Shown here in pieces: positions 9,387 through 40,500 of a stretch of 42,374 bases of DNA. Source of the DNA: a virus; IMG/VR virus record IMGVR_UViG_3300045988_090786. One strand, given 5' to 3'. Each line of letters starts with the position of its first letter. Position 1 is the first letter of the stretch. The translations under genes and the position numbers were made by a program. The notes beneath the pieces were generated by a model that worked only from the letters and a program-made list of their open reading frames with translations, had not been told where the DNA came from and did not search any database.

Positions 9387-9590
9387 TTAATTAAAAAAAA
9401 TAGTATCTCTTTCTTCAGGGGAAAGCTGCAGTAAATCACTAATCGCTTTCACCTCAGATGTCTTAAATTCAGAATTTCCGTTAATTTTGTTCAACAATCC
9501 CTGATACGTCAGGGATAAGAAGTCGGCTACATAGGACAGCTTATAGCCTGACATATTTAATTTTTCTCTTAACTTTTCGATATCGGTCAT
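9387..9590 (-). CDS. cro: Cro-like XRE-family HTH regulator
   Basis: 67-aa HTH protein divergently transcribed from the repressor gene; GAGGAGGTG SD. Confidence 0.7.
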   Translation of the reverse strand: MTDIEKLREKLNMSGYKLSYVADFLSLTYQGLLNKINGNSEFKTSEVKAISDLLQLSPEERDTIFFN

Positions 9591-9632: not shown

Positions 9633-9661
9633 ATAATAACATTGAGTTGATTATAAGTCAA
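9633..9661 (-). promoter_or_regulatory. Leftward early promoter (TTGACT-17-TATTAT) driving cro and the replication operon
   Basis: Minus-strand TTGACT (9661..9656), 17-nt spacer, TATTAT (9638..9633). Confidence 0.6.
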
Positions 9662-9689
9662 CTTTTTTTTATATTTTTATCAAAATTTA

Positions 9690-9718
9690 TTGAATGATAG
9701 TCTACATTTTGATACAAT
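9690..9718 (+). promoter_or_regulatory. Rightward promoter (TTGAAT-17-TACAAT) for the repressor/lysogeny operon; half operator TCTACA in the spacer
   Basis: TTGAAT 9690-9695, 17-nt spacer, TACAAT 9713-9718; GGAGGTGAG SD and ATG 9741 follow. Confidence 0.6.
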
Positions 9719-9740: not shown

Positions 9741-10124
9741 ATGGACAACAATAAAAAGGTTTTTCTCAAACATCTCGGACGACGAATTCGACTATGCAGG
9801 GAGAATATGCATATGTCGCAAGAAACATTAGCGAAACTGCTGGGATATAAATCGAAATCATCAATTAACAAGATGGAATCCGGTATTAATGACATCCCAC
9901 AATCCACATTAAAACAAATTGCCGACATCCTGCATACAACGCCTACATTTTTAATCGACGGAAAGACACCTGAACCAGCAAAACCGATAAACCTCCATGA
10001 TTTGCTCGAATCCTCGCAAGTTATGTTTTTTAGCAAAAATGGCAAACCGATATCCGAACAAGCCCGGAATGAAATCAAAAATTATATTGAGTATGTATTA
10101 TCAAAGGAATCCGAAGAGAAATGA
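9741..10124 (+). CDS. XRE-family HTH repressor (ImmR/CI-like, no peptidase domain)
   Basis: HTH_XRE motif QETLAKLLGYKSKSSINKMESG; followed by an ImmA-type metallopeptidase gene with ATGA start/stop overlap. Confidence 0.8.
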   Translation: MDNNKKVFLKHLGRRIRLCRENMHMSQETLAKLLGYKSKSSINKMESGINDIPQSTLKQIADILHTTPTFLIDGKTPEPAKPINLHDLLESSQVMFFSKNGKPISEQARNEIKNYIEYVLSKESEEK

Positions 10125-10585
10125 AACGAATGCTGCCAGTCGTCCTGGATATAATCAAAAAATACGGAACTAATGACCCGAATGAAATCGCTTCGGCTAT
10201 GCATATATCTGTAAAGAAAGTCCCGCTTCCGGATGAAATCGGCGGATTTTTTCTAAAAGCTCTTGCGATCAAAGAAATATTTATAAACGAAAAAGACGGT
10301 TATAATGCCCAGAACGTAGCACTCGCCCACGAAATCGGACATATTATCCTGCATCGTGCAGGCGATCAGCTATTCACCGTCCATTCGCTGAAAAAGCATA
10401 CCGTCCGCAAGCAGGAATATGAAGCGAATAAGTTCGCGTTTCTTCTGATAGCTCATACCTGTCTCCGGAACAACATTCAGATGATTGACGGTATACAGGG
10501 CGAAAAGCTGCTGACATTTGATGGCGTACTTGAATTATTGGATATATTCAAGAATTATAGTTGCTATCAAGAGGTGCCGAAATGA
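10121..10585 (+). CDS. ImmA/IrrE-family zinc metallopeptidase (anti-repressor protease)
   Basis: HEIGH zinc-binding motif (ALAHEIGHIILH) in a 154-aa protein directly downstream of the XRE repressor. Confidence 0.8.
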   Translation: MKRMLPVVLDIIKKYGTNDPNEIASAMHISVKKVPLPDEIGGFFLKALAIKEIFINEKDGYNAQNVALAHEIGHIILHRAGDQLFTVHSLKKHTVRKQEYEANKFAFLLIAHTCLRNNIQMIDGIQGEKLLTFDGVLELLDIFKNYSCYQEVPK

Positions 10586-11619
10586 AGAAATTTATTATTT
10601 GGTTTTTTGTGATTGCCTTATGCTTAAGCAATGAAGTGTTTCTCAGTATTGGATTAATATATCTCTGTTACAAGCTCTATAAAAAATATTTTAGTGAACG
10701 TGTAAATGTGTCTATCAACAGCGACTATGCTGATCCGCAGACCAGCATGCAGGCAATACGCAACCAGATTGCCCCGACGATCTATAAATACTTGACACCG
10801 TATACCATGACATGGAAAACGTGGCCAACGAAAATCACATTAACAAAATATGATTATGCGTCAATTCGCAATTTAACAGAAAAAGAAACCACAATTGACA
10901 TGAATGAAATAACAGAAGAGCAATTCAATCAAATGATAGACGAACAATTGAACAATGCTGCTAATGTTTTATTTTGTAAAAATTTTGACGTTAAGATTCA
11001 TGAATCCGCATCGCCGAATTACATTGTAATAAACAAAACCGCTCTTATAAAAACATATTATGAAACTTTCGGAATGAATAAATTTTATATTCCACATCTT
11101 ATAAATTACTCGAAAAAATATTCATTCCAGCTTGAAGAAAATGAAATCATTACTGAATTAACAGCAATCAATCGTCGTATTGCAATAGAAAAACGATCTG
11201 CAGCCATAGAGAATTCCATAATAACAAATCGCCCTATTATCTCTAATGTAGATATCCATTACATAGATTCATTGGATGGTGTAGCATTCGAAAAAATCCT
11301 CGGTAAAATATTTGAATCGATGGGCTATTCCGTTCAATTCACGAAAACATCCGGAGACCAGGGGGCAGACTTGCTCTTATCGAAAGGCGATGAGTTAAAG
11401 ATCGTACAATCAAAGTGCTACAAAGACAATGTATCGAATAGTGCCGTACAGGAAGCAGTGGCGGCAAAAGCATTTTATAAATACGATCTGGCGGCAGTAG
11501 TCACAAATAGTCATTTTACGCAGGGAGCAATTGATTTAGCGGAAGCAAATGGTGTTGAGTTAATTGATCGTGATAAACTGATTGAATTATTAAATGTGTA
11601 TCCGATTCCCCGCACTTAA
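10582..11619 (+). CDS. Membrane-anchored protein with C-terminal Mrr-cat (restriction endonuclease-like) domain; low-GC moron
   Basis: N-terminal TM FIIWFFVIALCLSNEVFLSIGLIYLCY. C-terminal GVAFEKILGKIFESMGYSV...GDQGADLLL...KIVQSKCYK matches the Mrr_cat D-(D/E)xK core. AAGAGGTG SD; ATGA overlap with ImmA stop; the region is visibly AT-rich versus the rest of the genome. Confidence 0.7.
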   Translation: MKKFIIWFFVIALCLSNEVFLSIGLIYLCYKLYKKYFSERVNVSINSDYADPQTSMQAIRNQIAPTIYKYLTPYTMTWKTWPTKITLTKYDYASIRNLTEKETTIDMNEITEEQFNQMIDEQLNNAANVLFCKNFDVKIHESASPNYIVINKTALIKTYYETFGMNKFYIPHLINYSKKYSFQLEENEIITELTAINRRIAIEKRSAAIENSIITNRPIISNVDIHYIDSLDGVAFEKILGKIFESMGYSVQFTKTSGDQGADLLLSKGDELKIVQSKCYKDNVSNSAVQEAVAAKAFYKYDLAAVVTNSHFTQGAIDLAEANGVELIDRDKLIELLNVYPIPRT

Positions 11620-11636: not shown

Positions 11637-12758
11637 ATGCGAAGAGCGAACGGCTCCGGATCTGTCTATAAGCGTCCGGATAATGCGCACCGCCGGAAAC
11701 CGTGGGTGGCCGTTGTAAACCTCGGCATGACTGATACCGGCAAACGCAGAAAGAAAATCATCGGCAGCTTCGAACGCCAGCGGGAAGCGCAGGCTGCGCT
11801 GGAAGCGTACAATATGAATCCGCAAACGGCGGCAGCGGCAGACATCACATGGGCGGACATCTGGGAACGTATCAAAACTGGACGAGAACGCTTGAAAAAA
11901 CCGTTAAGTAAAGTTCATTTGATGTACTGGAAAAATCACGTCAGCAAAATTGCAAGTCTGAAAATCAGCGAAACGAAAACACTACATCTGCAGCAAATTA
12001 TAGACGAATCAAACGTTTCGGCATCCGGACAATCCGGTATTATGACTGTCATGCATATGCTTTATAGGTATGCTATTGCTAATGATTTAATCATTAAGGA
12101 TTACTCCCGATTTGTTGTAACTGCAGTAAAAGTTAAATCAGATATCCATAAGCCGTTTACAACGGAAGAAATGCGATTATTGTGGAAGCATTGTAATGAT
12201 GATATAGCGCGGATTATCTTAATACAGACTTATACCGGCATGCGGCCGAAAGAGCTGGCAATGATAAAAATTGACCATGTAAATTTATCCGCCCGCACAA
12301 TGACAGGTGGTCTGAAAACTGATGCAGGGCGCAATCGAACAATTCCGATCGCAGAATGCATCCTACCGTTTGTTATATATTTTTACAGTATTTCCAAATT
12401 TGCAAAACATGAATATTTAGTTATGCCGGATCGGCAGCGTGGATTATATGGTAAAAATGGCCTGCTTTCCATAACCTACTCATACCGCAAATATCTTGAG
12501 AAAATAGGTATTGCAGGACATCTCCCGCACAACCCCCGTCACACATTCATAACGATTGCTGACAATTATAGCATGCCGGAAAAAATTCAAAAAATGATTG
12601 TCGGGCATGTTTCCGGCAATAATGTGACGAAAGATGTGTATACGCATAAGATTATCCCGCAGCTCATCGCTGCCGTTGATGCATTGCCGCATGGCGAAAA
12701 CATGACAATTTATCCTGACGAAAATGGAAGCCAACTGGAAGCCACAGATACGAAATAA
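11637..12758 (+). CDS. int: Tyrosine integrase (phage integrase family)
   Basis: 373 aa. N-terminal SAM-like/core-binding region; C-terminal catalytic region with R...HxxR...Y pattern (NPRHTFIT, VGHVS, YTH). AGGAGGTG SD. Confidence 0.85.
   Translation: MRRANGSGSVYKRPDNAHRRKPWVAVVNLGMTDTGKRRKKIIGSFERQREAQAALEAYNMNPQTAAAADITWADIWERIKTGRERLKKPLSKVHLMYWKNHVSKIASLKISETKTLHLQQIIDESNVSASGQSGIMTVMHMLYRYAIANDLIIKDYSRFVVTAVKVKSDIHKPFTTEEMRLLWKHCNDDIARIILIQTYTGMRPKELAMIKIDHVNLSARTMTGGLKTDAGRNRTIPIAECILPFVIYFYSISKFAKHEYLVMPDRQRGLYGKNGLLSITYSYRKYLEKIGIAGHLPHNPRHTFITIADNYSMPEKIQKMIVGHVSGNNVTKDVYTHKIIPQLIAAVDALPHGENMTIYPDENGSQLEATDTK
12725..12747. repeat. 23-bp motif TGGAAGCCAnnTGGAAGCCACAG (copy A, inside the int 3' end)
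   Basis: Repeats almost exactly at 12923-12945. Confidence 0.6.
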
Positions 12759-12922
12759 CGCATTTTAACTCAAAACACAAAAACAAAAAAGATAGATAAC
12801 GTCGATGTTATCTGGCTTTTACTAATATGGTTTATTATAATAGCCATAATTCTGATGGGGATATAAAATGTTCAATATTCTTAGTATTTATCGTATTTTT
12901 TAGAATTTATGCTTATACAGAT

Positions 12923-12945: not shown

Positions 12946-13318
12946 CGTAATCCTGTGTCAGCCGTAGACGTGACATGTTATAATATTTTCAGAACTCAAA
13001 AACAGAGTATCTGTTTTTACGGGATCAATATCATTTGATATCGATCCTATTTTTTTTATTATAAAAAGAACGGGTATTTCACCGCTCTTATTTTTTATAA
13101 TTCTATTCCTATTTTGATTTTGCAATACTAATTCAAAATATTTTTTATAAATTATTTCTAACATTAAACATAAACAGTTTAAAAATAAATTCAGTAGTTT
13201 TCTTAATGGCCAAGCCGCACACAAAACAGTAAAGTTTACAATATTAAAATTATCAATATTTATAAGCATTCTGACAGACGAAAAATAAAAAAGTCAGTAT
13301 TTATCGAATGGCCATTGC

Positions 13319-13372: not shown

Positions 13373-13966
13373 CTATTTATCACGACAAAACCAGACGCGA
13401 AACACAATCATTGCTCTGTGATGACTCGTAATTCCGGGCGATAATTTCCATCCTAAATATATCCGCCATCGATAACGGCTGCTAATCGGCAGCGTGCAGT
13501 ATAACATCCAGTGATTTCTTGACGACGCATAATATAGTTCATGTTTGCCGGTTTTATAGTCCGCATAGACTTTAACGCTGCCGGGCGGGATATTACAGCC
13601 GAACCACTCAAAAGCAAAGCCATAGGCGCAATTGCGGTAAAGCCAGAAGACACGGCAACAATACCGCTTAATGCGGTCAATTAACGGCAGCGGCGCTATG
13701 TTAATACTGTATTTTTTCCAACGGTTATATTCCGGTAAAATATGCCGCTCTACACGGTAATATTTGTAAAAGTCGTACCTGATGATCCTCGGAGCATATT
13801 TTGTCACGCAATCTTCAGAGTCCAAGCTGTCATCCCACGTTTGCCATAACCGCAATACCCCCGGCAATTCGCCGTTCTGGTCAGCAAACAATACGACAAT
13901 CCAATTCGTGAGATAGCAAACAATCATACAGACAAGTTGCAAAGGAGCGTAAATAAACCACTTCAT
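13373..13966 (-). CDS. Trp/Tyr/Cys-rich membrane protein of unknown function (moron-like)
   Basis: N-terminal TM segments; unusual W/Y/C/R-rich composition; last gene before the terminator and attP region. Confidence 0.45.
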   Translation of the reverse strand: MKWFIYAPLQLVCMIVCYLTNWIVVLFADQNGELPGVLRLWQTWDDSLDSEDCVTKYAPRIIRYDFYKYYRVERHILPEYNRWKKYSINIAPLPLIDRIKRYCCRVFWLYRNCAYGFAFEWFGCNIPPGSVKVYADYKTGKHELYYASSRNHWMLYCTLPISSRYRWRIYLGWKLSPGITSHHRAMIVFRVWFCRDK

Positions 13967-23167: not shown

Positions 23168-23946
23168 TTACCTCCGATAGAATCGTTAATCGCAGACAAT
23201 ATGCTTTGATTGTTCGCCGGAGAATCCGTGTCAACCGGCTGCGCGCCGGAATTGGACGATCCCGTCGTTTGCGATCGGGCGGATACCTGAACTTCGGCGA
23301 CTTGCGCCACGTCAATCTGCTCAAAATGTAGCGAGCAGTTCAGCCCGTGCAGGCTGCTTACGTCATCGGGCGCTTCGGCATGGACTAAAAGCATATTGTG
23401 ATACGTTCCGAGACGCGTTACGACATCCACCGGCGTGCGCGCAGTAATCATATTTGCAAACAATGTCCATGCAGATATACCTCTGTCGCCGGTAACTGCA
23501 GGCTGGCCGGGCGGTGCAAAGAAATTTGTAATCGGAATAATACTGTTAATCTGATTGTAACCGCTGATAACCGCGTCAAATAGCCTGTTCCCCGTCTTGA
23601 TTGACCGGGAATACACTTCTGCATCGGACACCATCACGTCAATGTCAAGTTCTGCCGGCAGTAATATCGCGTGATCAGTCATCACCGATCCGCTCTGCAC
23701 CGGATAATGCGTCGCTTCAACCGACAATGCGTGATTTGTCCGCATAATGCCGGAAAATGCAGCTCCGCCGATTGTCCATTTCGGCGTATATAAAATATAG
23801 TCCTCAAAATTATTAAACGCAGTGGTGTAATCCAGCAGCGTTTGATTGTTAAATACTTTCGCGACATCTTTTGTAAAGTCCGTCCAGCTGGCACGAGATG
23901 ATGTGATTTCTTTGCCGTAGTTTTTGATTGACGTAATTAAACTCAC
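23164..23946 (-). CDS. Tail protein distal to the tape measure (XkdP-like position), GTG start
   Basis: GTGA overlap with the TMP stop; 260 aa. Confidence 0.4.
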   Translation of the reverse strand: MSLITSIKNYGKEITSSRASWTDFTKDVAKVFNNQTLLDYTTAFNNFEDYILYTPKWTIGGAAFSGIMRTNHALSVEATHYPVQSGSVMTDHAILLPAELDIDVMVSDAEVYSRSIKTGNRLFDAVISGYNQINSIIPITNFFAPPGQPAVTGDRGISAWTLFANMITARTPVDVVTRLGTYHNMLLVHAEAPDDVSSLHGLNCSLHFEQIDVAQVAEVQVSARSQTTGSSNSGAQPVDTDSPANNQSILSAINDSIGGK

Positions 23947-26276
23947 TGCATACCCGCCCCCCTGTCATAAATATTACCAATATCACGTTCCGGCAGTACC
24001 TTTCTGATTTCTGATGCCGCCGCTCTGCCGATAGTCTGCGGATCGGCGTTATTGCCGTAGACATTGATGGTTACCGGCGCATTAACCGTATTCCTTGCGC
24101 TGCGGGAATCCGCAAAGCTGCTCGTCCCCGCAAGATTGCTAATCGTCCCCGTCCATTCGCCCCACTTTTGCTTTACTGCATTCCAGCCGTTTTCAAGTAC
24201 CCTGCCTGTATTTGCTGCTCTTTCCAACAAAGACGGACTCCCGGACGGCGTTACATCCGGTTCCTGTGGCGGCGGGGGATTATTCCGTGCCCATTCGTCC
24301 GCTTCCTGTTGTATGATCGCTTTCGCGTCAGCACGTTCCGAGTCCCAGCGGTCATGTAATTGCTCGGCAGTAACGCCTTCACTGTTAGCCGTATATCCAT
24401 TACGGACGTTATAGATTGCGTCAATCAATGCTTTTTGCGATTCAGCGGACATATTGATGGCACCTGCTCCGCCCATTGCCTGTATTGCCCGCTCGATGAT
24501 ATTCGTCCCGCCGCCATGCTGCACGGCAACTGACCAGACGGCTTCACGCACACCTCGAGATTGTTTTTCAATATTTAGCCCCGTACTATTCAGGATCTGC
24601 GCAACTTGCGGAGCATAATGCGTTTTTGCAATATACTGTCGCTGCGCTTCCCGGAACCCTTCGGGATCTTCACTGGCAATATCGCGCCATTCCTGATCAA
24701 AGTCTGCAGAGCCGACAGCTCCCGCATTTGATAAACGGTTATACCACTCGGTATTGATGCCGGACAAGTGCTGCAGGAAATCTGGTATATTATCTGGGAT
24801 AATCTGCCAGCTGCCATACGCTCCACCGGAACCCCCTGTGGTACCCGGTGCGCCCTCGTATTTTGACGATAGCGCGCCCAGACGCTTGTCGGACAAGTCG
24901 ACACCGCCAGAGAACATATTACCGATGAGAGCTTTTGCTCCGGCAAAATCACCCGTCAATAATTTACCGATGATATTCGCGAATTTTCCGATGCCGGAAA
25001 TCATCTTTGCAATAGTAATAACAATTTGCTTAAGGACCTTTTTAAATGACGTCCAAGCGCGAGTTTTACTTGTAATGCCGTCACTGATTTTGAAGAATTT
25101 TAGAATTCCGTCAATCAATGACGATATGCCATTCACCAATGACGTGACGCCCTGTCCGAGAGAATCGAACGCTTCGGAAAACGCATTAACAGTTTCTGTA
25201 TCGACGATATACGTCCATAATTCAGATAGTTTTTCAAAAAATTCCTCGCCGAGATATTCTGCTATATCGTAGATAGCTTTCGCCATCCGCTCAAACGCAT
25301 CAACGAATGCCTGCAGCCTCCCCGAATGTTCAACCCAGTGGAAAAATCGACTGACATAATCCACCATGACTGACCATGCTTTATTGCATAACTCTAAAAC
25401 ACGATTCAGCTTTTCCCACTGCTCGCCGAACAGACTTTTCTTGCCGTCCATGTAGGCGAAATAATCGTCTAAGAGCAGCAGCACTCCGCCGATGGCCATG
25501 GCCATAGCACCGATCGGTCCCGCAAGAAACGCAGCAATAGCAGTACCGAGGGCGAGAAACGCCACTCTGCCGTTATGCGGTAGCCGTTTCCAGAATTCGT
25601 TGATACGCTTACCGATGCCGGATAGAACCCGCCAGACGGCGAATGCGATATTTCGCACGAATCCGAAACCGGTCGCGATCGTTCGGGTAATGCGGGGCAA
25701 ATTAGTGATGATGTAATCGTTGATGGTTTTTAGCGTTTTTTTCGCATCACCCAGAGGTTTCGCAAGGTCTTTGACAATATAGTAAGCGACCCACTGCATA
25801 CCGGCTGCGATTTCCTGTTTTAACCGCGTGAATTCAAATGCCAGTTCCTGCACTTGATTCATGGCGGCCTTATAGCCGCCGCCTGCAGTCATTGCCGCAC
25901 TGTCGGACAATAGCTGGCGATACTGCTCGCGGAGCTTCGGATTAATCTGTACTTCATTAGCCGATTTTCCGAGAGCGTCCAACGCCATCTTCATTTGTTT
26001 TGCCTGACCGGCAGAAACGAACATCGTCCGTCCCAACGTTTCATACGCCATTTCCTGATCGCCCATGGACTTTACGAGTGATACTCCGGACGCCACAATG
26101 CCACTAATCGCCGCCATTACAAGTGCGCTGGCTTTCGCCAGTTTCGGAGCCAGCGATTCCATCCCGCCGACCATTTGATGAACAGAATTAACCGCTTTCT
26201 GTAACTCCGCAACCGACCGCGCGTCGACATCAGTACCCAGTTTCACCAGATACTCTTCAATGTAGTTTGCCGCCAC
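23943..26276 (-). CDS. Tail tape measure protein
   Basis: 777 aa with long alpha-helical/coiled regions and Gly-rich segments; follows the chaperone/frameshift region; GTG start overlapping the stop of the frameshift extension. Confidence 0.85.
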   Translation of the reverse strand: MAANYIEEYLVKLGTDVDARSVAELQKAVNSVHQMVGGMESLAPKLAKASALVMAAISGIVASGVSLVKSMGDQEMAYETLGRTMFVSAGQAKQMKMALDALGKSANEVQINPKLREQYRQLLSDSAAMTAGGGYKAAMNQVQELAFEFTRLKQEIAAGMQWVAYYIVKDLAKPLGDAKKTLKTINDYIITNLPRITRTIATGFGFVRNIAFAVWRVLSGIGKRINEFWKRLPHNGRVAFLALGTAIAAFLAGPIGAMAMAIGGVLLLLDDYFAYMDGKKSLFGEQWEKLNRVLELCNKAWSVMVDYVSRFFHWVEHSGRLQAFVDAFERMAKAIYDIAEYLGEEFFEKLSELWTYIVDTETVNAFSEAFDSLGQGVTSLVNGISSLIDGILKFFKISDGITSKTRAWTSFKKVLKQIVITIAKMISGIGKFANIIGKLLTGDFAGAKALIGNMFSGGVDLSDKRLGALSSKYEGAPGTTGGSGGAYGSWQIIPDNIPDFLQHLSGINTEWYNRLSNAGAVGSADFDQEWRDIASEDPEGFREAQRQYIAKTHYAPQVAQILNSTGLNIEKQSRGVREAVWSVAVQHGGGTNIIERAIQAMGGAGAINMSAESQKALIDAIYNVRNGYTANSEGVTAEQLHDRWDSERADAKAIIQQEADEWARNNPPPPQEPDVTPSGSPSLLERAANTGRVLENGWNAVKQKWGEWTGTISNLAGTSSFADSRSARNTVNAPVTINVYGNNADPQTIGRAAASEIRKVLPERDIGNIYDRGAGMQ

Positions 26277-34480: not shown

Positions 34481-36379
34481 TTAATCGTCTTCATGACTTC
34501 CTTGATCTTTTTTGTCATATACAAAATATCCGGTAACAAGAAAATTCAGTTTATCATTGAATATTTCAGGAGAAATGATAGCTTGATATTTACCTTTAGT
34601 AATCACAAAACGGCCACGCTTATTTATTTTCAACGTTCCATTTTCTATGGTGTCGGATAAATGCGAAACAAGTTCATCGACATCTTCGTTTTCTTCCTTG
34701 CGACGTTTAATAATATGCTTCAGCCCGACTGCATCATTTCCCCAAATTAACGTAATGTCATCAATATCAGAACGAATAAATGCATTTTTGATATGCCCAT
34801 TTTTACAATCAAGTAATTTTTGGACGGCAGCATCTCCGTGAGGAGCTTTATGCTCTTGCCCTAATAGATCAAGGCTTTCCTGCTTAAAGCCAATACTATT
34901 ACCGCCAGTAAATTTACCGTCATCACTGCGCGGGTGTTTGCTTTCTTCGAAATCGGCGTCCTGCGTTTCCATCGAAGACATGCCGGGGATATTCATTTCA
35001 CCGGCGGCTTCCGGCTGATCAGACGCTGCTTCGATCTGTTTATCGGTAATGTTCGTCCACATGCCGGTCAGCTTGCTTGATCCCTGCAGTTCTCGGAGCG
35101 CAGTCTTTTCTGATACCAGCCCCGCCGTATACGCCTGCACGACAGCTGCCGTTTGCTGGCTGCCAAGGCTCTGTTTTTCATCATTACTCGGGCGGCGTAC
35201 CGGATTAAATATATAATCCAGATCGTCAGGCACAGCCCCCAATGCTGACATACAGACAATGGGCAGCAGCTTATCAAGCACCGGACGTAACTGCGATTCC
35301 TGCGACTGCTCAATGGTGTCATAGTAATTATCCATATCCGCATCGCCGGTAGAGTTCATGCCCGCAGGCGACCGACCAAATAACTTTGTGACAGGAATCC
35401 CGCACGCTCCGGAAACGTCCATCATGAAGCGGTCATAGACTTCTCCAAGCCCAGAAAATGTATACTGGTGCGATTCGTAGGAATCATCTTTGCCGAGAAT
35501 CTGAATGCCGTTATTATTCAGCATCATATTCAATCCCTCGAGCGTATTATATAAAGCCTGCTGCGACTTATCGCCGCCGTACGCCAGGAGCTGCTCCATC
35601 CCGTCAATTTTCATAACGCGGATGTTGGCCATGAACGTTAACAGGGCAATATTCCAAGAAACATTATCCCGCTTTTTCAATTCCGAAAAAACGTGTTCCA
35701 TCTCGGACGTTCCCCAATAGTTCTCGGCCAATTTCTCGAGATACGGCATTTCACGGCCGGAGAACCGGCAGACGCGGCTGTTGTGCAGTCGGATAACGCC
35801 CTGCCCTTCCGGCAGCGTAACCTCATAATATTCCGGCATACCGAAATCGGGATCGGTTATATCGGTAATCAAATCGGCACTCGGCATTATACCAGACCAC
35901 CGATCCATAATGAGCAAGCCTTTAAACGCCCCCGGCATCACACGATCCAGATCCAGCGGCTCATCCATGCGATCATCCTCACCGTCAATCATAATGATTC
36001 CGGCAGCACCGCCATACAGCCGTCCCCAGTACAAACCGTTTAATATTTTCGAGTGCAGGCGCGTCTGACGGATAATTTTTGATATTTTCTGTATCTGGTC
36101 TGGATTGATATCAGACTGGAAATCATAGCCATTCTTCATCATATCCTGCGGGATAGTGTTAATAATTTTCTGGACGACCCAGTGCGACCGGTACAGAGAG
36201 TTCAACACCTGCCAGTTTTGAGTAAACCTCGTTAGCGGATATTCTGTCGCCTCGAGCAGGTTAGGCATACCTGCGCCGCTGCGGGCAAGCGGATTCACAA
36301 ACTCATCGAGTGTGAGTTTCCGCCCCACGTTCCGCCCTGCGTCGTTCGTTAAGCGGCGAGCTTTACTTTTCTTCTTCAT
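34481..36379 (-). CDS. Portal protein (SPP1 gp6-like) with C-terminal extension of about 150 aa carrying an EESKHPRSDDGKF motif
   Basis: 632 aa directly after TerL and before MuF; GGAGG SD; the C-terminal region after residue 480 is extra relative to typical portals of about 500 aa. Confidence 0.75.
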   Translation of the reverse strand: MKKKSKARRLTNDAGRNVGRKLTLDEFVNPLARSGAGMPNLLEATEYPLTRFTQNWQVLNSLYRSHWVVQKIINTIPQDMMKNGYDFQSDINPDQIQKISKIIRQTRLHSKILNGLYWGRLYGGAAGIIMIDGEDDRMDEPLDLDRVMPGAFKGLLIMDRWSGIMPSADLITDITDPDFGMPEYYEVTLPEGQGVIRLHNSRVCRFSGREMPYLEKLAENYWGTSEMEHVFSELKKRDNVSWNIALLTFMANIRVMKIDGMEQLLAYGGDKSQQALYNTLEGLNMMLNNNGIQILGKDDSYESHQYTFSGLGEVYDRFMMDVSGACGIPVTKLFGRSPAGMNSTGDADMDNYYDTIEQSQESQLRPVLDKLLPIVCMSALGAVPDDLDYIFNPVRRPSNDEKQSLGSQQTAAVVQAYTAGLVSEKTALRELQGSSKLTGMWTNITDKQIEAASDQPEAAGEMNIPGMSSMETQDADFEESKHPRSDDGKFTGGNSIGFKQESLDLLGQEHKAPHGDAAVQKLLDCKNGHIKNAFIRSDIDDITLIWGNDAVGLKHIIKRRKEENEDVDELVSHLSDTIENGTLKINKRGRFVITKGKYQAIISPEIFNDKLNFLVTGYFVYDKKDQGSHEDD

Positions 36380-39096: not shown

Positions 39097-40500
39097 TCAG
39101 GTTTGCAAATCCATATAATTAATTACATCCCCGCCGCGATGCAGCTTCACATCAGCAGCAGTGCCTACCTGTTTAATGTATCTTTTAACGATCACATCAC
39201 AGTACACCGGATCGAGTTCAACCGCCCGGCACTTCCGCCCCGTTTGCTGACAAGCAATCAATGTACTGCCGGAACCGCAGAACGGTTCTAATACGATTTC
39301 ACCCTTACGGCTTGAATTTAATATACCTCGCGTACAGAGCGCGATCGGTTTCATTGTCGGGTGATCTTCCGACCGCGTCGGTTTCGGTATCCGCCAGATT
39401 GTAGTATCAGCGTCAGTGCCGGAATCAACCACATCATAACTTGGTACTTTAATATTTATATCCTGCATATCTGTTCTAAAATTTAGCACATAACCATCAT
39501 CCGTTTCCGTAATAGACAGCGGCAGATGTTCATCAATCACAGTAGATTTATTTCGCCCACCGTAAAATTTATGCGAACCATCCGGCTTCCATCCGTACAA
39601 TATCGGTTCGTGCTGCCATTGATAATCCTGACGACCTAAAACTATTGTATTCTTTACCCAGATTAAGCACTGCTTTAACAGCAAGCCTGAATCCCTAACC
39701 GCTCGCCGGAAAATATCACCGGAGCTATCCGCATGACAGATGTAATACGCCCCGCCATTTTTGAGCACTGCCGCCATCGCAACGAATGCCTCTGATAAAA
39801 ACAGCCGGAATTCATCTTCATCCATCTTATCATTCTGTATGGTGAGGTGATCTTTAGTCTTGCCGACATATTCCACATTGTACGGCGGATCGGTAAATAC
39901 CATATCCGCCAGCTGCCCATCCATAACGGTTTTAACATCATCCGGATTAGTAGAATCCCCGCATATCAATCGATGGTCGCCCAATTCCCAGATGTCGCCC
40001 GGCTGCGTCACCGGTTCTTTAATATCTGCAGCTTCCGCTTCGGCATCAAAATCATCCTCACCGACGCCCGCACCGGCAGCCGCCGATTCCGCCTCACCGA
40101 TAAGCCGGTCAATATCACTGTCAGAGTAGCCGGTGACGTCCGCAAAATCGCCTGTATCCGCCAATAACTGTCCAAGCAGGTCATTATCAATATTCGATAA
40201 TTCCGCAATACGATTATCCGCAACCAAATCTGCATATTCCGCCGCTTCCGATTCATATTCCTGCACATCCACAGGCACCTCTGTCAGCCCTAAAGATAAT
40301 GCAGCCAGCAAACGGCCATGACCACGGACAACGAACCCGGAACGCTTAGAAATAGTAATCGGAGCACGCCAGCCCTGCGTCTGTATGATTTTTGCTAACA
40401 GAGCAATCTGCTTATCGCTGTGCCGATTCGGATTTCGCGGATTCGGAATTAACGTCTCAGGATCGCGCATGTCTACATACGCACAATAAACCGGTATCAT
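39097..40500 (-). CDS. ParB-like nuclease domain fused to a DNA methyltransferase (beta-class N6A/N4C, motif IV DPPY before motif I)
   Basis: N-terminal ParB/Srx-like LIPNPRNPNRHSD...VVRGHGRLLAA; motif IV FTDPPYN; motif I LEPFCGSGST near the C-terminus. Confidence 0.85.
   Translation of the reverse strand: MIPVYCAYVDMRDPETLIPNPRNPNRHSDKQIALLAKIIQTQGWRAPITISKRSGFVVRGHGRLLAALSLGLTEVPVDVQEYESEAAEYADLVADNRIAELSNIDNDLLGQLLADTGDFADVTGYSDSDIDRLIGEAESAAAGAGVGEDDFDAEAEAADIKEPVTQPGDIWELGDHRLICGDSTNPDDVKTVMDGQLADMVFTDPPYNVEYVGKTKDHLTIQNDKMDEDEFRLFLSEAFVAMAAVLKNGGAYYICHADSSGDIFRRAVRDSGLLLKQCLIWVKNTIVLGRQDYQWQHEPILYGWKPDGSHKFYGGRNKSTVIDEHLPLSITETDDGYVLNFRTDMQDINIKVPSYDVVDSGTDADTTIWRIPKPTRSEDHPTMKPIALCTRGILNSSRKGEIVLEPFCGSGSTLIACQQTGRKCRAVELDPVYCDVIVKRYIKQVGTAADVKLHRGGDVINYMDLQT

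Follow-up and report, generated by a model that had tools for sequence, protein, structure and literature searches.

What does a gene for a membrane-anchored nuclease do between the immunity genes and the integrase gene of a temperate phage? This question is raised by IMG/VR virus record IMGVR_UViG_3300045988_090786, a circularly permuted temperate phage genome of 42,374 nucleotides (42.4 kb, here called the window), in which a gene that we refer to as X lies between the genes for an ImmA-type protease and an integrase. An earlier note, made from the sequence alone, had put X forward as a candidate single-gene defense or exclusion system of a prophage. We examined X by profile searches, structure prediction, and a comparison of the genomic contexts of its homologs. 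X is likely to be a single-gene defense or exclusion protein of one kind or another that is expressed in the lysogen. For its mode of action, we favor, more tentatively and by analogy, a nuclease stationed at the membrane that would destroy incoming DNA and be kept off the chromosome by its location.

X joins a membrane anchor, a helical domain, and an Mrr_cat nuclease domain

The features of X, including those obtained from a structure predicted with AlphaFold2 (AF2), are as follows.

10582..11619, plus strand: gene X, 345 amino acids (aa), with a membrane anchor, a novel helical domain, and Mrr_cat (ATG at 10582, stop codon at 11617-11619)
10582..10701, plus strand: hydrophobic anchor, residues 1-40 (hydropathy, family pattern, and AF2 helices)
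10744..11226, plus strand: all-helical "WxxWP" domain, residues 55-215 (AF2 model and conserved columns)
11263..11592, plus strand: Mrr_cat PD-(D/E)xK nuclease domain, residues 228-337 (PF04471, E=1e-27)
11290-11292, plus strand: putative catalytic codon E237 (motif position, as for the next three)
11368-11370, plus strand: putative catalytic codon D263
11407-11409, plus strand: putative catalytic codon Q276
11413-11415, plus strand: putative catalytic codon K278

The C-terminal Mrr-cat domain described in the earlier note was readily recovered. The profile was matched over its whole length (positions 1 to 115 of 115) with a score of 96.9 bits against a cutoff of 21, and both motifs that had been pointed out, GDQGADLLL and KIVQSK, were found. 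The model of the inactive NA-iREase1 family scored far lower on X (41.2 bits). E237, D263, Q276, and K278 were invariant in 15 full-length homologs, and the GDQGADL and QAK motifs were visibly kept in the full-length distant members. We take these four residues to be catalytic from their position in the motif and from general knowledge of the family. The D...QxK variant of the motif is that of MspJI. In the AF2 model (predicted local distance difference test [pLDDT] score, 83), residues 233 to 328 formed a helix, four strands, a helix, and a strand, which is the restriction-endonuclease-like fold. A Foldseek search gave MspJI, AspBHI, EndoMS, and AF1548 at E values of 2e-4 to 9e-4, with matches over the nuclease domain only. 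By profile, motif, and predicted fold, X is a member of the Mrr_cat family, and DNA cleavage is predicted.

For the middle region, in which the earlier note had seen no recognizable domain, hidden Markov model (HMM) and structure searches had been suggested. These searches gave no family or fold match: the region had no counterpart in Pfam, PHROGs, NCBIfam, PDB, or BFVD, and the fold search returned neither a winged-helix nor an SRA match. Yet the region is conserved and predicted to be well folded. Since 24 columns were invariant in an 11-sequence alignment of the middle region, and since six helices were predicted with a pLDDT of 88.5 (predicted template modeling score, 0.80), we regard it as a real domain. 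Its invariant residues included W78, W81, P82, D91, Y92, S94, I95, R96, E102, and R205. A profile search of 1.84 billion proteins returned only 19 representatives at an E value of ≤0.001. All 10 of the distant matches that were scanned ended in Mrr_cat, so that the WxxWP domain appears to be rare and dedicated to this type of nuclease; the distant proteins differed at their N termini, where extra transmembrane (TM) segments, zinc ribbons, or DUF4236 were found. The WxxWP domain is previously undescribed, and it may play an adaptor or sensing role.

The sole hydrophobic stretch of X spans residues 4 to 30 (19-residue Kyte-Doolittle maximum, 2.16). It comprises two segments, residues 4 to 16 and 19 to 30, parted by N17-E18, with K2 and K3 in front and K31, K34, K35, and R40 behind, and AF2 placed helices at residues 2 to 16 and 18 to 41. 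The anchors of the family show the same pattern: two uncharged segments of 10 to 17 residues (mostly 11 to 13) are separated by a turn of 1 to 5 polar residues, usually with Glu or Asp and Pro, and Lys or Arg residues flank them on both sides, more of them on the C-terminal side. The hydrophobic N terminus reported in the earlier note was therefore retained in our description, but its reading as one TM helix was not: judged from the sequence pattern, this stretch looks more like a hairpin or a kinked anchor than like one uninterrupted helix. Whether it forms a kinked span or a re-entrant hairpin, the helical and nuclease domains are predicted by the positive-inside rule to face the cytoplasm. 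Anchoring was conserved, although the anchor sequence was not, and it was also kept in the distant family members. The linker that follows (residues 41 to 54) is disordered in the model, with a pLDDT below 50. The mean pairwise identity was 24% at the N terminus, 14% in the linker, 39% in the helical domain, and 71% in the nuclease domain.

Homologs and probable host of X

About 15 clusters of full-length X homologs, all metagenomic, were aligned with X from end to end at 43 to 94% identity. Because these clusters share conserved residues, X is, by this comparison, a coding gene far beyond chance. Identical copies of the X protein occurred on 53 contigs, the longest of them 592 kb, and the 90%-identity cluster to which it belongs had 161 members. 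X was kept in all nine close relatives of the phage in IMG/VR, and no sibling lacking X was found among them. A megablast search of GenBank phages gave no match, and a tblastn search against phages gave matches to the Mrr_cat domain only. No full-length relative was found in the GTDB species representatives by scans with exact-peptide patterns, which do not prove absence.

The sequences point to a Dialister-like host (Veillonellaceae) from the human gut. A flanking GdpP protein shared 70% identity with its counterpart in Dialister hominis and 59% with the one in Allisonella, and the lpx genes beside contig L001 fit a diderm host.

X is the third gene of the lysogeny operon

In the window, the lysogeny module (9.4 to 12.8 kb) lies between replication genes (1 to 8.3 kb, minus strand) and the genes for tail, head, and packaging (13.4 kb to the end, minus strand). 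The features around X are as follows.

9387-9590, minus strand: cro-like gene, divergent from the repressor gene
9633..9718, both strands: divergent switch region, with promoter-like sites between the cro-like gene and the repressor gene
9741..10124, plus strand: CI-type repressor (HTH_3/XRE), first gene of the operon (Pfam HTH_3, E=1.2e-12; PHROG transcriptional repressor families)
10121..10585, plus strand: ImmA/IrrE-type metalloprotease, Peptidase_M78 (PF06114, E=3.7e-10; phrog_87 metallo-protease, E=2.5e-18)
10571..10576, plus strand: Shine-Dalgarno-like GAGGTG within the 3' end of immA (direct sequence reading)
11637..12758, plus strand: tyrosine integrase, last gene of the operon, 17 nucleotides (nt) past X (Phage_integrase and Arm-DNA-bind_4; phrog_1, E=3.9e-41)

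The gene order repressor, ImmA, X, and integrase given in the earlier note was confirmed by the matches to HTH_3, Peptidase_M78, and Phage_integrase. The translational coupling of X to immA that had been proposed also agreed with our data, as the start codon of X overlaps the stop codon of immA in the sequence ATGA (10582-10585), and the ATG lies 5 nt from the end of GAGGTG and 7 nt from its GAGG core; this coupling is specific to the present lineage. A longer variant of the X open reading frame (ORF) has a TTG start at position 10561.

A scan for consensus promoters gave TTGACT-17-TATTAT on the minus strand (9661-9633) and sites on the plus strand at 9647-9675 and 9690-9718. These are consensus matches only, and their total in the scanned region was not above the shuffled expectation; the two plus-strand sites probably provide the promoter from which rep-immA-X-int is transcribed as an operon. 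Apart from a weak 5-bp stem inside immA (10424-10437), no terminator-like site was found between rep and int, and Rfam and tRNA scans of the window detected neither a structured RNA nor a tRNA. In blastn comparisons with the integrated copies on contigs L005 and L009, DNA homology stopped at about position 12839, which places attP just downstream of int.

The AT-rich composition of X had been taken as a sign of horizontal acquisition. The composition itself was as described, with a GC content of 35.0% for X versus 46.4% for the window, and only 12 of the 827 X-sized windows were as low. However, the attP-proximal region is AT rich as well, and so are the genes for the repressor (37.8% GC) and the Cro-like protein (34.3% GC). 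Because the whole switch region shares this property, the low GC content is a weak sign of recent acquisition, and the mobility of X is better shown by its mosaic distribution.

The slot between the repressor and integrase genes has a variable content

We then considered the contexts of six full-length homolog lineages, located on long contigs from metagenomes. In each of them, X was co-oriented with the repressor module and immediately downstream of it, and it lay upstream of int at the prophage end. The genes upstream of X (HTH, helix-turn-helix) and those between X and int are listed by lineage.

P0001: HTH and ImmA upstream; none between X and int
P0004: HTH-S24 upstream; none between X and int
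P0006: HTH-S24 upstream; a KilA-N gene between X and int
P0007: HTH-S24 upstream; an Abi_2 gene between X and int
P0010: HTH and a 73-aa ORF upstream; none between X and int
P0015: HTH and a 72-aa ORF upstream; none between X and int

The earlier note had set against its own proposal the case of homologs that regularly belong to ordinary type IV restriction loci. This was not what we found, since all six lineages were in prophage lysogeny modules. Replication modules varied by lineage (PolA, DUF927 primase, ERF, or SMC-like), and so did integrases and integration sites. No conserved partner gene was found beside X in the contexts inspected, which fits a single-gene system. The 72-aa ORF before P0015 had a weak match to Peptidase_M78 (E=8e-4, on contig L013). 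Together with its 73-aa counterpart, it resembles a truncated ImmA (L013:7770-7988 and L010:7770-7991, each between the repressor gene and X), and repressors of this type may recurrently be accompanied by such mini-ImmA genes.

Contig L005 carries the backbone of the window phage (87 to 88% nucleotide identity) with a swapped immunity region, HTH-S24 instead of HTH and ImmA. X persists there, which argues that it is not functionally tied to ImmA. Nucleotide homology restarts inside X, at position 10748 of the window (L005:8176), after about codon 55. As the recombination boundary falls inside the gene, the part of X that encodes the anchor and linker moves together with the immunity cassette, and the remainder moves with the integrase.

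Since all nine close relatives carry X, evidence for an empty slot was drawn from more distant rep-ImmA modules, in which ImmA was 32 to 38% identical. In three of them (L086-L088), the slot was empty and rep-ImmA was followed directly by int. In view of the S24 contexts, these int-only modules, and the immunity swap in L005, we rejected the idea of ImmA as a dedicated partner of X. In two others, L089 and L090 (IMG/VR contigs 3300045988_157930 and 2835000839_000001), the slot was filled by an identical 548-aa, near full-length homolog (L089:4443-6089, plus strand) of PD-Lambda-1, also known as SNIPE (PADLOC, E=8e-80), which is discussed below. This homolog consists of a TM hairpin, a long coiled middle part, and T5orf172/MUG113. 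The next gene encodes a secreted protein of 333 aa that matched no family. Beside X itself, AbiD was found in L007 (E=4e-29) and PDC-S22 in L001 (E=3e-131).

A comparable layout was found in a cultured phage, Roseburia phage Jekyll, after domain reannotation of the region L095:2498-6881 (LR596902.1, 41216-45599). The gene order is HTH_3, Peptidase_M78, a 280-aa protein with a zinc ribbon, TM2, and Mrr_cat, an HslV-like gene, and integrase. In the deposit, the HTH_3 repressor and the Peptidase_M78 ImmA homolog are labeled "Xre-like antitoxin" and "toxin component of TA system." The "putative restriction endonuclease" (VUE37434.1) is the membrane protein with the zinc ribbon, TM2, and Mrr_cat, and the layout is as in the window. 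Furthermore, a strongly hydrophobic N-terminal segment was present in 53 of the 85 nearest relatives that share only Mrr_cat with X, so that membrane-anchored Mrr_cat proteins form a broad, largely unrecognized class, and a broad set of "restriction endonuclease" annotations is relabeled.

X thus lies between the repressor and integrase genes, in the orientation of the repressor gene, at a position whose content varies across related phages. Judged from these gene contents, the repressor-integrase junction is a hotspot of defense cargo. It could be mined as such, as it holds X, SNIPE, AbiD, PDC-S22, or TM2-Mrr_cat depending on the phage.

A proposed mechanism and its alternatives

A model for X is offered by SNIPE/PD-lambda-1 of Escherichia coli, which combines a TM segment, DUF4041, and GIY-YIG and cuts the DNA of phages as it is being injected (Saxton et al., Nature 2026; PMC13190303). 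SNIPE is constitutively membrane bound, its middle domain assists the cutting of injected DNA, and without the TM segment it is toxic through cleavage of the chromosome (PMC13190303). We propose that the same spatial logic of self and nonself is used by X, here from nonhomologous parts. Being transcribed with the repressor gene in the rep-immA-X-int operon, X would be made in the lysogen. Its N-terminal hairpin would fix it in the cytoplasmic membrane of a Dialister-like diderm member of the Bacillota, with the other domains in the cytoplasm. The tether would keep the nuclease off the nucleoid and the resident prophage, and phage DNA crossing the inner membrane would be cut near its entry site by the E237/D263/Q276/K278 nuclease, which would protect the lysogen. 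The WxxWP domain could serve as an adaptor that positions or licenses the nuclease, e.g., through binding to the injection machinery, to DNA, or to both.

A bolder version of this idea, which we consider speculative and rather doubtful, is that the SNIPE principle was invented independently in X and the approximately 19 representatives of its domain, with the WxxWP domain recognizing the injection apparatus of phages of gut Negativicutes and other Bacillota, namely the tape-measure protein or the entry channel. If this were true, immunity by membrane-tethered nucleases would be a general, convergent class that temperate phages use as superinfection exclusion, and this class would take in many TM-Mrr_cat proteins now labeled merely "restriction endonuclease."

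Several observations weigh against a membrane-stationed nuclease that destroys incoming DNA. The positive-inside rule is the sole basis for the predicted cytoplasmic topology. The net charge of the WxxWP domain varies from -7 to +7 among the homologs, and a conserved basic DNA-binding surface is therefore not evident from the sequence. Nor did this domain show a relation to DUF4041: hhalign against the SNIPE homolog of L089 gave a probability of 0.1%, and neither X nor its relatives had a Pfam match to it. Two of the three distant relatives that were inspected lie outside recognizable prophage contexts: P0106 is a stand-alone chromosomal gene between a thioredoxin reductase gene and a PHP gene, and P0108, on a short contig, has an unassigned ORF on one side and a chemoreceptor gene on the other. 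In the third case, on a 2.4-kb contig, P0104 is preceded by an 89-aa ORF with an HExxH motif (L094:375-644), which is similar to the mini-ImmA ORFs. Finally, the position in lysogeny modules is also compatible with abortive infection or with cargo that has no role in defense.

These alternatives and our model are not separable by computation, and we weighed them by the evidence at hand. In abortive infection, X would be latent, either held at the membrane or autoinhibited, until it was activated or freed on infection; it would then degrade host and phage DNA and kill the cell. The trigger could be a perturbation of the membrane, the binding of a phage protein to the helical domain, or release by proteolysis. 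This explanation draws on the same architecture and slot evidence as our model, an AbiD gene adjoins X in L007, and Mrr_cat is known from the literature as a killing effector in Avs/NLR-like and Lamassu systems; the toxicity of SNIPE without its TM segment implies that release alone would suffice. However, conserved protease sites, sensor NTPases, and partner genes are lacking next to X, and the retention of the anchor across the family is equally explained by direct defense, so we regard abortive infection as unlikely. A role outside defense is, in our estimate, improbable. X could be an addiction module or toxin-like stabilizer of the prophage, could degrade DNA after induction, or could degrade transforming or conjugative DNA at the membrane. 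The operon position by itself only shows that X is prophage cargo, its fixation in all nine close relatives and its retention across the immunity swap would suit a core accessory function, and the genes next to the Jekyll nuclease gene were labeled a toxin-antitoxin pair by the depositors. Yet the empty slot in L086-L088 indicates that X is dispensable for lysogeny, and the slot is otherwise filled by recognized defense genes. X is also predicted to be cotranscribed with the repressor gene rather than with lytic genes, no antitoxin-like partner is conserved, and the "toxin" of Jekyll is a Peptidase_M78 ImmA homolog.

Two further explanations concern how X would recognize its target and how it would be regulated. 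As a tethered type IV restriction enzyme, X would read a DNA modification with its helical domain and cut modified incoming DNA with Mrr_cat. Mrr itself has Mrr_cat as its catalytic domain, MspJI and AspBHI, which gave the best structural matches to the nuclease domain, are modification-dependent enzymes, and a weak PADLOC match to mREase_IV was obtained (E=4.6e-4). Against this, no modified-base reader was detected in X, its full-length homologs were never in restriction or immigration-control loci in the six lineages, the phage's own N6/N4 methyltransferase (39097-40500) would create a risk of self-targeting, and the conserved membrane anchor would be left without a role. We hold this explanation to be quite improbable. 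The least probable explanation, which we consider very improbable, is that the repressor and ImmA form a CapH/CapP-type pair dedicated to X; in that case, DNA damage or infection would induce X, which would not be made constitutively in the lysogen. Regulation of immune operons by CapH/CapP has been documented (PMC13228613). In PADLOC, ImmA matched capP (E=2e-10), the repressor matched capH (E=7.8e-7), and matches to PDC-M69A/B were also found; in addition, X is translationally coupled to immA. But the pair is located at a classic divergent switch, with the cro-like gene and the early lytic operon on the opposite side, and in L086-L088 it is accompanied by int alone. X homologs follow S24-type repressors in other phages and even on the same phage backbone. 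For these reasons, we take rep-immA to be the phage's own immunity module.

Other genes of the window

Further observations were made on the genes around the lysogeny module and in the late region. On the attP side, an ORF of 103 codons (12958-13269, minus strand) has a GC content of 24.7% (20% at third codon positions) and no Pfam match, with terminator-like hairpins inside it as well as downstream. This ORF may represent a second moron or noncoding DNA flanking the attachment site. Also beside attP, at the end of the late operon, is a gene for a DUF7338 protein with an N-terminal TM segment (13373-13966, minus strand; E=3.5e-35). The early-operon segment 8518-9122 (minus strand) holds two small genes for exported or membrane proteins, one of 105 aa with a signal-peptide-like N terminus and no family match and one of 95 aa in which a TM segment is combined with a weak match to LysM (E=1e-4). 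LysM ORFs homologous to the latter were found in the early regions of the X-carrying prophages L005, L009, and L013.

In the late region, the portal protein (34481-36379, minus strand; Phage_portal_3, E=1e-114) ends in a PBECR1 domain (residues 533 to 618). This Barnase/EndoU/ColicinE5-D/RelE-like nuclease domain is, by family assignment, a toxin-like domain fused to a virion protein. A 777-aa protein of the tail region (23943-26276, minus strand) has a VgrG3-like C-terminal domain (PF21277, E=9.5e-28) and is probably a cell-wall-degrading module associated with the tail tip or the tape measure. The N6/N4 DNA methyltransferase domain (39097-40500, minus strand; PF01555, E=9.6e-27) is within a 467-aa protein whose first approximately 190 residues belong to no family, the only match there being a subthreshold one to Cons_hypoth95 at 193 to 219. 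The enzyme may serve antirestriction, and its presence bears on whether X could be dependent on modification.

Comparison of X with known systems

Like SNIPE, X is a single polypeptide with an N-terminal anchor, a middle domain, and a C-terminal nuclease. The identity gradient of the X family from nuclease over middle domain to N terminus, given above, is also that of the SNIPE homologs (PMC13190303), one of which fills the same position after rep-ImmA in L089 and L090. Unlike SNIPE, X has a PD-(D/E)xK nuclease of the Mrr_cat type instead of GIY-YIG/T5orf172, and its anchor resembles a short hairpin, whereas that of SNIPE is a single helix in the N-out orientation. Membership of X in the SNIPE family was rejected, as DUF4041 and GIY-YIG are absent and PADLOC gave no match to PD-Lambda-1. 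X would thus be analogous, not homologous, to SNIPE.

Literature searches on TM segments with Mrr in prophages returned Epona and general mentions only, and the X family was not described there. Epona, from a chromosomal-integron cassette of Vibrio cholerae, is a single gene that joins a holin-like domain with two TM segments to Mrr_cat and has been shown experimentally to protect E. coli against phages (bioRxiv 10.1101/2024.07.02.601686). X likewise fuses a membrane domain to Mrr_cat in one polypeptide. The differences, as far as Epona can be compared by its description, are that a helical domain of about 160 aa parts the anchor of X from its nuclease, that X has no holin match, and that X resides in prophage lysogeny modules of gut Bacillota. 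X belongs, as a longer relative, to a loose TM-Mrr_cat class that includes Epona. The Jekyll protein has the same slot and gene order, and its Mrr_cat domain shares 48% identity with the one in X, but it is shorter (280 aa), its anchor consists of a zinc ribbon and TM2, and it lacks the WxxWP domain.

With Mrr and MspJI, X shares the family and fold of the catalytic domain, whereas these enzymes are soluble, carry N-terminal readers of modified DNA, and are encoded in chromosomal restriction loci. Neither Pfam nor the fold search with the middle domain revealed an Mrr_N winged helix, an SRA-like domain, or another known modified-base reader in X. Without a reader domain, and with all six lineages in prophage lysogeny modules, X was not classified as a type IV restriction enzyme by architecture or context. 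The best PADLOC domain match of X was to the Mrr-like nuclease of ZorD from the type I Zorya system (E=2.6e-23), which, according to the literature, is recruited to a ZorAB complex in the membrane and acts in a membrane-associated defense at the phage entry site. ZorD, in contrast, is a large SWI2/SNF2 helicase-nuclease of a four-gene system, and X matches only some 140 of its C-terminal positions (923 to 1065). Sie2009 of lactococcal phages and Ltp of Streptococcus thermophilus are small membrane-associated proteins, encoded between the repressor and integrase genes and expressed in the lysogen, that block the entry of superinfecting DNA. X resembles them in position and membrane association; they lack a nuclease domain and act by blocking injection. 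The PADLOC candidate PDC-S02, an unvalidated single-gene system with profiles of 334 to 390 aa and a C-terminal Mrr_cat, was matched by X (E=1.4e-13) only at profile positions 192 to 307 of 334, within the nuclease. The N-terminal two thirds of X were unmatched, and an assignment to PDC-S02 was rejected.

Single-protein membrane-tethered nucleases have only just been recognized as a defense that tells self from nonself by location (SNIPE, 2026; Epona, 2024). The concept behind X already has these precedents: X combines the layout of SNIPE with the type of nuclease present in Epona, and its helical domain is new. To that architecture, X would add a second, nonhomologous nuclease chemistry, PD-(D/E)xK, together with a new adaptor domain. 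It would also add a clear case in which temperate phages use such a nuclease, encoded in the repressor operon, for superinfection exclusion, and an example from human-gut Negativicutes, in which defense biology has barely been tested.

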